Positions 61,071-63,918 of a stretch of DNA of 64,000 nucleotides are shown in pieces. The translations under genes and the position numbers were made by a program. The notes under the pieces are model-generated. The model was not told the origin of the DNA, did not search any database, and saw only the letters and a list, made by a program, of their open reading frames with translations. The first letter of the stretch is position 1. Each line of letters opens with the position of its first letter. The DNA lies in assembly GCA_963981015.1 (NCBI GenBank), contig CAXCCG010000003.1, forward strand, positions 578 through 64,577. The letters run 5' to 3'. The DNA is from an uncultured Gammaproteobacteria bacterium (GTDB lineage: Bacteria; Pseudomonadota; Gammaproteobacteria; GCF-002020875).

Positions 61071-61823
61071 TCAAGCTGCCATTTTTCCTTCAGCCAAAGA
61101 TTGGTACTCATCAGCACCATAAAGATCAAAACCAGCAGGAAGAATAAATTGAGCTTTACAGAGAAGCTGGAACTGTAACGGCGCATCAGAGTTAACTCGC
61201 TCCACTTCGAGCTGAATTGACTCTCTCTTCAGAACCTCCCGAAACCCCTGATTAAGATAGCGAGGACAGTACCCAACCCGCTGAGGCTCCGCAGTTTCTA
61301 GTAACAGAGCAAAGCTGTCAGATGCATTTCCATCCTCCACTGTTAGCTGCAAATGCTCCACTGTTAGCTGCAAATGCTCCCCGGAAACAAGATTACTAAC
61401 TGCCTCCCGTTCTTCCTCATTTAGATAACGAAGCCCGTGACTGAAAAAATAAAGCTCCACTTCCCCTCGTTCATTTGGCTCTACTTCAGGAAACAGACAA
61501 AGCTTATCTGTACCTCGCACGCCACCAGAACGAGCTAACAGCTCCATCTCATGAGCCTCCGAACCAATCCCCATCCATTCTAGATAATCAGGATATTCCG
61601 GGCGCGAAGAATCGAGTAGACGATTGGAAAACAAAGGGAAAAGTTCATCAGAATAATAGACACTTTTTTTGTCTATCATTCTTCCTAAATACTCAAAGCT
61701 TGGGGATGCTTGCGCCCCTTGAGTATAGGAGAACTGATAACCGCCTCCATCACGGGTAAGACGACCAACAGTATGCCAAAACCTTGTATCTGGGGCTTGC
61801 CATGCGATAAAGAGCGATTTCAT
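61071..61823 (-). CDS. HipA-N-terminal-like (HipS-like) segment fused to a HIRAN-like domain
   Basis: N-half ends in ...EMELLARSGGVRGTDKLCLFPE resembling the LLxxxGxDCAGAL end of the HipA_N domain; C-half LTVEDGNASDSFALL...VGYCPRYL resembles the HIRAN core (REpdNpyDpnAi...GYvPre); 4 bp from the kinase stop. Confidence 0.4.
   Translation of the reverse strand: MKSLFIAWQAPDTRFWHTVGRLTRDGGGYQFSYTQGAQASPSFEYLGRMIDKKSVYYSDELFPLFSNRLLDSSRPEYPDYLEWMGIGSEAHEMELLARSGGVRGTDKLCLFPEVEPNERGEVELYFFSHGLRYLNEEEREAVSNLVSGEHLQLTVEHLQLTVEDGNASDSFALLLETAEPQRVGYCPRYLNQGFREVLKRESIQLEVERVNSDAPLQFQLLCKAQFILPAGFDLYGADEYQSLAEGKMAA
61338..61379. repeat. perfect 2 x 21-bp in-frame tandem duplication (CACTGTTAGCTGCAAATGCTC) inside the HipS-HIRAN-like gene
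   Basis: read directly; encodes duplicated HLQLTVE. Confidence 0.9.
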
Positions 61824-61827
61824 CGTG

Positions 61828-62733
61828 CTACTCCTCCAGCAATCGTTGTCGGTTACAAATCAATAGCTCTAGCGCAAACTGCCGAGCCAATATAGATGCC
61901 TCACTCGGTGGAAGCCTGTCAAAGAGATCTTGACAGCTATTCTCTGTTATTTGCCGCAATTGATCCAGCCATATTTGGCCAATTTCCGGCTCATACGCTA
62001 TCGCTTTCTGAAATAGCTCCAAGGTTAGCATTGGCTTTTTACTTCTATTGGTCTCAAAAATAGCAGAGCGCGCACGCTTAATATAATTGGAAATCTGCCG
62101 CCCTTGATCTTTTGATGTGAGCCGATCATGCCGAGTTTCATCCGTCTCATTTTGCCCCATAGAGGCTGCATGATCATAAGTGGGAGCCAGATAGAGCAAC
62201 TCATGTGTGCGAATAATCCCCCAATTTTCATGATGACGGTCTTGGTTTGAAATCCACACATCAAGCAATAAGTATCCAAGAAATAGATGGAACGCCGTCT
62301 TGATCGCTGGATTCGGGGGAGACCAGCCGGGAGGAAAACCTATTGTTTGGCTACGCAGTAGCGCAACAATCCTCTTTAAAGTATGGTCAGATACACGCCC
62401 GTCCTTCTGTTTAGGGTAGTCTTTATGAACAGCAGCAAGCAGTTCATTACCGTGAACCAGACGACCTCCTTCAGGAACCATTTGAGGAGAGAGCACACCT
62501 TTTCTACCTTTCCAAGAGGCAAAATTATACTCCGCATGGGGCAGTCCAAGTAGTCCTGCCAACTCTGCAGCAATCTTTTCTGCCCAGTTTTCACCTGTAC
62601 CAGGACGACCAATTTTGAACAGATACTCTTGATTATCTATGTGAAACCAATATTTTTCCTTAGTACCGAGCTGCTCTGGAAAATCTGGTGCGTCACTAAT
62701 AACCAAATCATAACAAATAAAAACATTTTTCAT
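61828..62733 (-). CDS. HipA C-terminal-domain-like (HipT-like) small Ser/Thr kinase with PI3K-type catalytic loop
   Basis: 301 aa; ISNQDRHHENWGII (DRHxxN catalytic loop), ...QLGTKEKYWF... Gly-rich loop-like region, APTYDHAAS; lacks HipA N-domain. Confidence 0.55.
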   Translation of the reverse strand: MKNVFICYDLVISDAPDFPEQLGTKEKYWFHIDNQEYLFKIGRPGTGENWAEKIAAELAGLLGLPHAEYNFASWKGRKGVLSPQMVPEGGRLVHGNELLAAVHKDYPKQKDGRVSDHTLKRIVALLRSQTIGFPPGWSPPNPAIKTAFHLFLGYLLLDVWISNQDRHHENWGIIRTHELLYLAPTYDHAASMGQNETDETRHDRLTSKDQGRQISNYIKRARSAIFETNRSKKPMLTLELFQKAIAYEPEIGQIWLDQLRQITENSCQDLFDRLPPSEASILARQFALELLICNRQRLLEE

Positions 62734-62919
62734 GATACAACTACCTGACTATTAATTATTAATCACCATTGGCATAATCCAACCGTGAAGCCGGACAAGC
62801 TGAGAATTTTATTATTATGCAGCAATGTTAGAACTGGTACCTTTTTTGTTTTGAAGGTGTACGAATAATTCCTCCTTAGGGACTTTAACCCGTTAGATTA
62901 AACGCCGGTGACGGCATAC

Positions 62920-63061
62920 GGTCAGGTCTAGAAAAGTAGCCTTTTTTCGGATAAGCTATCCTGTATGTCACGACCCGTAAGAATAGAATTCGAAGGTGCT
63001 CTGTACCACGTCAAGAACAAGAGGGATGAAAAACTGTATGGCTACAATTCTAGACCTGACC
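62920..63061. mobile_element. remnant of an IS200/RAYT-like (Y1 transposase) element bounded by 14-bp perfect inverted repeats
   Basis: GGTCAGGTCTAGAA ... TTCTAGACCTGACC; encloses ATG..MSRPVRIEFEGALYHV (typical N-terminus of COG1943 transposases) which is then truncated. Confidence 0.5.
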
Positions 63062-63127
63062 CTTTTGTGTTCTCTCTTTTGTGTTCTTTTGTGTGTTCTT
63101 TTGTGTTTTTCTTTTGTGTTTTCTTGT
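63059..63127. repeat. degenerate tandem repeat of TCTTTTGTGT(T) units (~6 copies)
   Basis: read directly in sequence. Confidence 0.7.
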
Positions 63128-63352
63128 TACCGGTCTCTGCCTTGAAAAGGTGGAAGCCAACCGTCAATCGAGCTGCTGCATAAGGGCCTTTAGTTGCTGC
63201 TAAAGGTGGGTCTCAGTTTACCCGTTTTTTTCTCAATTTTGCCACAAGCCACCCCATTTCGCCGGTCCGGTTACGGCGGGCGTTAGGCTACAAAAAACAG
63301 CACATTATCAATGTATGTTGCATTGTGCGCATCGTGCGCTATAATTGATCGC

Positions 63353-63631
63353 ATGATCAAATCATTCAAGCATAAAGGCATTCAGAAATTTTTTGAAACT
63401 GGCGTCACTTCAGGGATAAATTCAGCGCATAAAAGCAAAATTAAAATGAGGTTAGTAGCTTTAGATACTGCAATATGCATAGATGATATGGATTTACCAG
63501 GCTTTCGTCTCCATCCGCTAAAAGGCAATAGAGAGGGAAGGTGGTCAATTGATGTGAACAAAAATTGGCGCATCACATTTGAGTTTACAGATGGAGATGC
63601 ATACATTGTAGATTATGAGGACTATCATTAA
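63353..63631 (+). CDS. higB: HigB-type (RelE/ParE superfamily) toxin
   Basis: MIKSFKHKGIQKFFETG... ~92 aa, gene order toxin-first with 1-bp overlap to an XRE antitoxin. Confidence 0.75.
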   Translation: MIKSFKHKGIQKFFETGVTSGINSAHKSKIKMRLVALDTAICIDDMDLPGFRLHPLKGNREGRWSIDVNKNWRITFEFTDGDAYIVDYEDYH

Positions 63632-63918
63632 TGAATATGCATAACCCACCACATCCTGGTGAATTTATCCGAGAGATATATCTTGATCCGCTTGGAATCA
63701 GTTACAGGGCAGTAGCTTTAAAGCTAAATGTATCCCCTTCAACATTCAACCGTATAATTCAAGGGCGTAGTAATATAAGTTCGGGGATGGCTTTACGGTT
63801 ATCAAAAACACTTGGAAGAACTCCTGAAAGCTGGCTTTCCATGCAAAGCAACTATAACCTTTATATGGCCAAGCAGCATATTAATCTTGATGAAGTTCAA
63901 GAGCTGGCAATGGCCTAA
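63631..63918 (+). CDS. higA: HigA-type HTH (XRE) antitoxin
   Basis: MNMHNPPHPGEFIREIYL... HTH LKLNVSPSTFNRIIQGRSNIS. Confidence 0.75.
   Translation: MNMHNPPHPGEFIREIYLDPLGISYRAVALKLNVSPSTFNRIIQGRSNISSGMALRLSKTLGRTPESWLSMQSNYNLYMAKQHINLDEVQELAMA

Follow-up and report, generated by a model that had tools for sequence, protein, structure and literature searches.

In canonical HipBA the kinase is ~440 amino acids (aa) long, carries an N-subdomain-1 and is encoded with an upstream HipB. In HipBST, known from E. coli O127 and H. influenzae and represented in Legionella by HipS-HipT, the genes form a tricistronic hipB-hipS-hipT operon with an HTH protein HipB, the core kinase is split from a stand-alone HipS fold of ~100 aa encoded upstream of it, and HipS blocks HipT via the Gly-rich-loop pocket. 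A further organisation, hipIN, consists of the kinase HipI and a downstream HipN, in which a HipS-like domain is joined to a HIRAN domain (Gerdes, Baerentsen & Brodersen, mBio 2021; PMC8262856). By the criteria of that study HipI is a core-only kinase of 279–321 aa with a Gly-rich loop near the N-terminus, and in the Hip Tree the HipI subclades fall within main clade XI; the same work describes HipL, a fused form in which kinase, HipS-like and HIRAN domains follow one another in a single chain (PMC8262856). Among defence systems, DS-6, a HipA-family kinase system, defends against phage and requires its catalytic residue to do so, and PDC-M03 has been put forward as a phage defence candidate (Payne et al., bioRxiv 10.1101/2024.01.29.577857). 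In the searchable literature we found no experiments on HipI, HipN, HipL or PDC-M03.

The gene pair analysed here lies in a 64,000-nt stretch of DNA from an uncultured gammaproteobacterium (the window), and its features are collected in Table 1. Judged by sequence, the pair is a hipIN-type module and the same as the PADLOC candidate PDC-M03. PDC-M03A matches the kinase (E 7.6e-116, residues 13–300) and PDC-M03B matches the partner (E 4.2e-85, residues 1–243); the genes are adjacent, both models are matched nearly end to end, and within PADLOC both proteins match PDC-M03 models only. As in hipIN, a core-only kinase of ~300 aa precedes its partner, the Gly-rich loop lies near the kinase N-terminus and contains a Ser/Thr, the loop, the DxHxxN catalytic motif and the Mg-binding Asp are all present, HipB is absent, and the HIRAN domain lacks an equivalent of HLTF Phe142. 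The relatives, which are Proteobacteria and a Nostoc, fit the fourth HipI subclade of Gerdes et al. We found no architectural difference from hipIN, the one peculiarity of the window allele being a 7-aa duplication in HIRAN. The original prediction had treated the arrangement (kinase first, a HipS-like plus HIRAN partner, no HipB) as unrecognised, which turned out to be wrong: it is the published hipIN (PMC8262856), described in 2021 and since catalogued as an anti-phage candidate. Both the literature and a defence-system database already contain the arrangement, which therefore carries little weight as a discovery; what the present survey adds is the pair in hundreds of genomes, evidence for tight translational coupling, examples embedded in restriction-modification (R-M) loci and a natural HIRAN insertion allele.

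Table 1. Features of the hipIN-type locus, in window coordinates
Feature	Position	Strand	Description and basis
hipI-like gene	61828..62733	-	301-aa HipA-family core Ser/Thr kinase without N-subdomain-1; ORF
hipN-like gene	61071..61823	-	250-aa two-domain partner, putative antitoxin/sensor; ORF
HipS-like (HipA N-subdomain-1-like) domain	61479..61823	-	partner ~aa 1–115; invariant LFPLFxNR...SRPEYP stretch
HIRAN domain	61134..61469	-	partner ~aa 119–230; Pfam, profile, Foldseek
Tandem duplication	61335..61380	-	perfect 21-bp repeat, 2.2 copies, in frame; TRF, 100% match
Shine-Dalgarno-like sequence for partner	61831..61837	-	GGAGGAG, within the last kinase codons; read from sequence
Divergent intergenic region kinase–higB	62734..63310	.	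presumed promoter site; 22-nt inverted repeat pair and 12-nt-period repeat

Set against the other known systems, the window pair differs from canonical HipBA in that its 301-aa kinase comes with neither an N-subdomain-1 nor an upstream HipB. It shares with HipBST the separation of a core kinase from a HipS fold, but it lacks HipB, the order is reversed with the kinase first, and the HipS-like domain is fused to HIRAN. With HipL it has three domains in identical order in common, although these are distributed over two ORFs, with a stop codon and 4 nt of spacer in between. DS-6 / PDC-M66 likewise combines a HipA-family kinase with a partner other than HipB; there the partner is DUF3037/DUF1829, whereas the window partner is of the HipS-HIRAN type and gave no DUF3037 match in Pfam.

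The catalytic core of a HipA-family kinase that had been predicted for the 301-aa product is indeed present. HipA_C is matched with an E-value of 1.7e-7 (31.6 bits, barely over the Pfam gathering score of 30.5), and in Foldseek the AF2 model (pLDDT 87.9) matches CtkA (E 7.5e-12, TM ~0.7) as well as Legionella HipT-like kinases and HipA. Alignment to HipA by hhalign (89% probability) places G23-T-K-E-K27 at the Gly-rich loop, D165-R-H-H-E-N170 at the catalytic DxHxxN motif and D187 at the Mg-binding Asp. These motif residues are invariant or nearly so, being found in 45–46 of 46 homologues; T24 lies within the Gly-rich loop, at a position held by Thr or Ser in 41 of the 46. K40 is the probable ATP-binding Lys, and to judge from its motifs the kinase appears to be catalytically competent. 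Since the alignment begins only at HipA residue ~157, N-subdomain-1 is absent from the kinase, in line with the predicted lack of a HipA N-domain. The kinase is structurally nearer to CtkA than to HipT, and profile comparison gave a similar picture (CtkA E 5.4e-6 versus E 0.043 for HipT(Lp)). Relatives of the kinase are encoded by 331 of 185,579 species genomes, compared with the 14 modules in the hipIN set of Gerdes et al. (PMC8262856). At the position of HipA Ser150, the serine that is autophosphorylated in HipA, the kinase carries an invariant Glu, which hints that this clade has swapped autophosphorylation control for control by the partner only.

The N-terminal half of the partner had been predicted to resemble the HipA N-domain, and at the level of fold this holds, the HipS chains 7vkb_B and 7ab3_B being its best structural matches; at the level of sequence the resemblance is sub-threshold, with Couple_hipA scoring 21.3 bits (E 3.9e-4), slightly under the Pfam gathering score of 22.5. 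No clear counterpart of HipS Glu63 or of the inhibitory Trp65 was seen in the partner, the alignment being too weak to map them. The predicted HIRAN domain, a beta-barrel fold, is recovered over its gathering score (Pfam, E 3.1e-6). L. plantarum lp_0118 (3k2y) is matched both by profile (E 1.7e-5) and by fold (TM 0.74–0.80), and the HLTF HIRAN is matched by fold too (Foldseek probability 1.0). Counts of residue conservation among homologues pick out G130-L-R-Y133, N166-x-x-D169-x-x-A172 and G184-Y185. Within these lie R132/Y133, N166, D169 and Y185, so that the 3′-end pocket motifs R-Y, N-x-x-D and G-Y/H known from HLTF/Rad5 and lp_0118 are conserved. The domain departs from HLTF/Rad5 in being joined to a kinase-inhibitor domain and not to a SNF2 helicase/RING, and the duplex-wedging Phe142 of HLTF is replaced by Pro. 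HLTF residues were mapped by eye, and on that basis P215 is taken to occupy the Phe142 position. We collected 879 homologues of the partner, named by NCBI ‘HIRAN domain-containing protein’; in a further search 388 clusters at 50% identity matched it with E<=1e-30.

The association of the two genes is strictly conserved. In the window, the kinase TAG stop codon (61828–61830) and the partner ATG (61823) are separated by 4 nt (61824–61827), which bears out the predicted downstream position and 4-bp distance of the partner. Among the 79 best loci having room downstream of the kinase, the partner follows directly in 78; the two are separate ORFs in these 78 relatives, 45 of which show a 4-nt overlap between kinase stop and partner start, and the gap never exceeds 27 nt. 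The stop/start overlap and short spacing are consistent with translational coupling, and the bicistronic operon is probably translationally coupled. It comprises only the two co-oriented genes and, as had been predicted, no HipB/HTH gene. No third gene was conserved at the 78 related loci: clustering the 233 ORFs that flank the pair gave 196 clusters.

These data also bear on the name ‘phosphatidylinositol kinase’, under which NCBI lists many members of the kinase family. The original prediction had counted wide annotation as a known metabolic kinase among the outcomes that would speak against it, and the name does occur, while a lipid-metabolic role finds no support. The product name is the sole argument for a metabolic lipid kinase that happens to lie beside an unrelated protein. 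Against it, bacterial HipA-family protein kinases account for all the best matches by fold and by profile, the strictly coupled partner bears a HipS inhibitor fold, and genes of lipid metabolism do not recur in the neighbourhood. The fold, the motifs and the gene contexts are those of a HipA-family protein kinase, and we rejected the lipid-kinase reading, to which we assign a vanishingly small probability.

We lean, with slightly better than even confidence, towards the view that the hipIN module is a kinase toxin restrained by HipN, whose HIRAN domain senses DNA 3′ ends and thereby brings about abortive infection. The HipS-fold domain of HipN would supply the missing kinase N-subdomain in trans and keep the kinase inactive, as HipS does with HipT, and the HIRAN domain would bind free DNA 3′ ends. 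Ends arising on phage DNA, on replication intermediates or through degradation or restriction of DNA would then divert HipN or alter its conformation, and the released kinase would phosphorylate an essential component of translation, probably one of the aminoacyl-tRNA synthetases, arresting the cell and so aborting the infection. By homology to HipT/HipS, and given the coupling of the genes, we infer that HipI is toxic and that HipN neutralises it by direct binding; the existence of the HipL fusion provides a Rosetta-stone argument for the HipI–HipN interaction. The idea of a DNA-end trigger comes from Gerdes et al. (PMC8262856). If this mechanism is right, the module would be a compact bacterial immune switch that converts free 3′ ends, a generic damage signal, into protein phosphorylation, and it would link a domain of eukaryotic fork-remodelling enzymes to prokaryotic immunity.

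The surroundings of the pair in the window are compatible with a simpler role. The module lies in a low-GC, variable toxin-antitoxin islet with two higBA pairs and vapBC and without adjoining R-M genes. The predicted nearby higBA was confirmed at 63311–63918, divergent from the operon, with HigA being the nearby HTH protein; overall, the toxin-antitoxin or phage-defence flavour ascribed to the locus was upheld. Such a setting, together with the fact that hipIN was first described as a toxin-antitoxin organisation (PMC8262856), speaks for a plain type II toxin-antitoxin module serving addiction or persistence with no phage sensing. HipN would in that case be a labile antitoxin, and HIRAN would either autoregulate the operon in the stead of HipB or have no signalling role; as the operon contains no HTH regulator, some other regulator must exist. 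However, characterised HIRAN domains bind DNA ends and not specific operators (PMC8262856), and no operator-like palindrome was found near the kinase start, the sole strong inverted repeat lying ~190–330 nt upstream around a transposase-like scar. Recurrent same-strand embedding in R-M operons, described below, is also unexpected for an addiction module. We consider this account unlikely. The transposase-like scar corresponds to the IS remnant of the original prediction, which is only weakly sustained: the N-terminus of the ORF resembles the start of a plasmid transposase (E 0.2) and the ORF is bracketed by the 22-nt inverted repeat, but it matches no Pfam or NCBIfam family. Upstream of the kinase gene no sigma-70-like promoter match was detected, an Rfam scan of the kinase–higB intergenic region returned no family, and terminator and tRNA scans around the operon gave nothing informative.

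Across the relatives the pair repeatedly occurs in defence loci. In 17 of the 78 loci (a raw count) it lies inside or beside R-M genes of the Type I, Type ISP or DUF1156 methylase kind; ~78% of the related loci have no R-M neighbour. In Thiocystis and Thiorhodococcus the pair is inserted between hsdM and hsdS at distances of 18 and 27 nt, at other loci it follows Type ISP enzymes by 14–76 nt (the neighbour-family scans covered the flanking proteins other than two Type ISP enzymes that already had an annotation), and at further loci a DUF1156 methylase and a SNF2/PLD helicase flank it. Relatives of the pair are embedded in loci of the Type I R-M and DISARM-like kinds, and such embedding, the criterion by which PDCs were defined, is shared with PDC-M03; the window pair, situated among toxin-antitoxin pairs without R-M embedding, differs in this respect. 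The R-M contexts raise a more specific version of the proposed mechanism, a second line of defence coupled to restriction. HIRAN would sense the 3′ ends that arise when incoming DNA is restricted by a Type I or Type ISP system and subsequently undergoes RecBCD-type processing, and failing or ongoing restriction would switch on the kinase and shut down the cell. This reading would explain the co-oriented insertion within tens of nucleotides in R-M operons and the placement beside RecB/RecD-like genes; we regard it as a speculative and rather improbable refinement. Were it true, HIRAN would be the first end-sensing immune receptor to join restriction to abortive infection.

Repair-related genes are also found close to the pair. 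In Methylobacter tundripaludum, RecB/RecD-like helicase-nuclease genes precede it, and RecG-domain and UvrD-type helicase matches occur among the nearest neighbours at two loci each. Since eukaryotic HIRAN acts at stalled forks, these contexts would suit non-toxic signalling of DNA damage or replication stress, in which HIRAN brings the kinase to stalled forks or broken ends and repair or replication proteins are phosphorylated. This possibility is difficult to reconcile with the high variability of the neighbours, which is unlike that of a housekeeping repair pathway, while the patchy spread across species genomes and the low-GC islet point to an accessory element. In addition, all characterised HipA-family kinases in the literature that we examined are growth-arresting toxins or defence effectors. 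We think damage signalling of this kind decidedly unlikely, and retain abortive infection triggered by DNA 3′ ends as the preferred reading.

Finally, we considered the 21-bp duplication in the window allele. It inserts seven residues (EHLQLTV) into the HIRAN domain, directly before the N-x-x-D DNA-end motif. It is unique to the window's own 90% cluster and absent from the other listed or aligned homologues, which are 243–245 aa long. The 7-aa insertion may impair DNA binding by HIRAN in the 250-aa allele, and the model drops locally in confidence (pLDDT <50 at residues 150–152). Taken further, these features would fit a decaying copy in which the duplication has inactivated the sensor, leaving the partner inert or merely competent as an antitoxin. 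We hold this to be quite improbable: the duplication is in frame, one repeat copy is still modelled as a beta-strand (E157–162), the HIRAN match probability stays at 1.0, and neither gene shows any other defect or lacks a key residue. Moreover, the identical 250-aa protein is found on 146 contigs from many samples, indicating that the allele is stably maintained.

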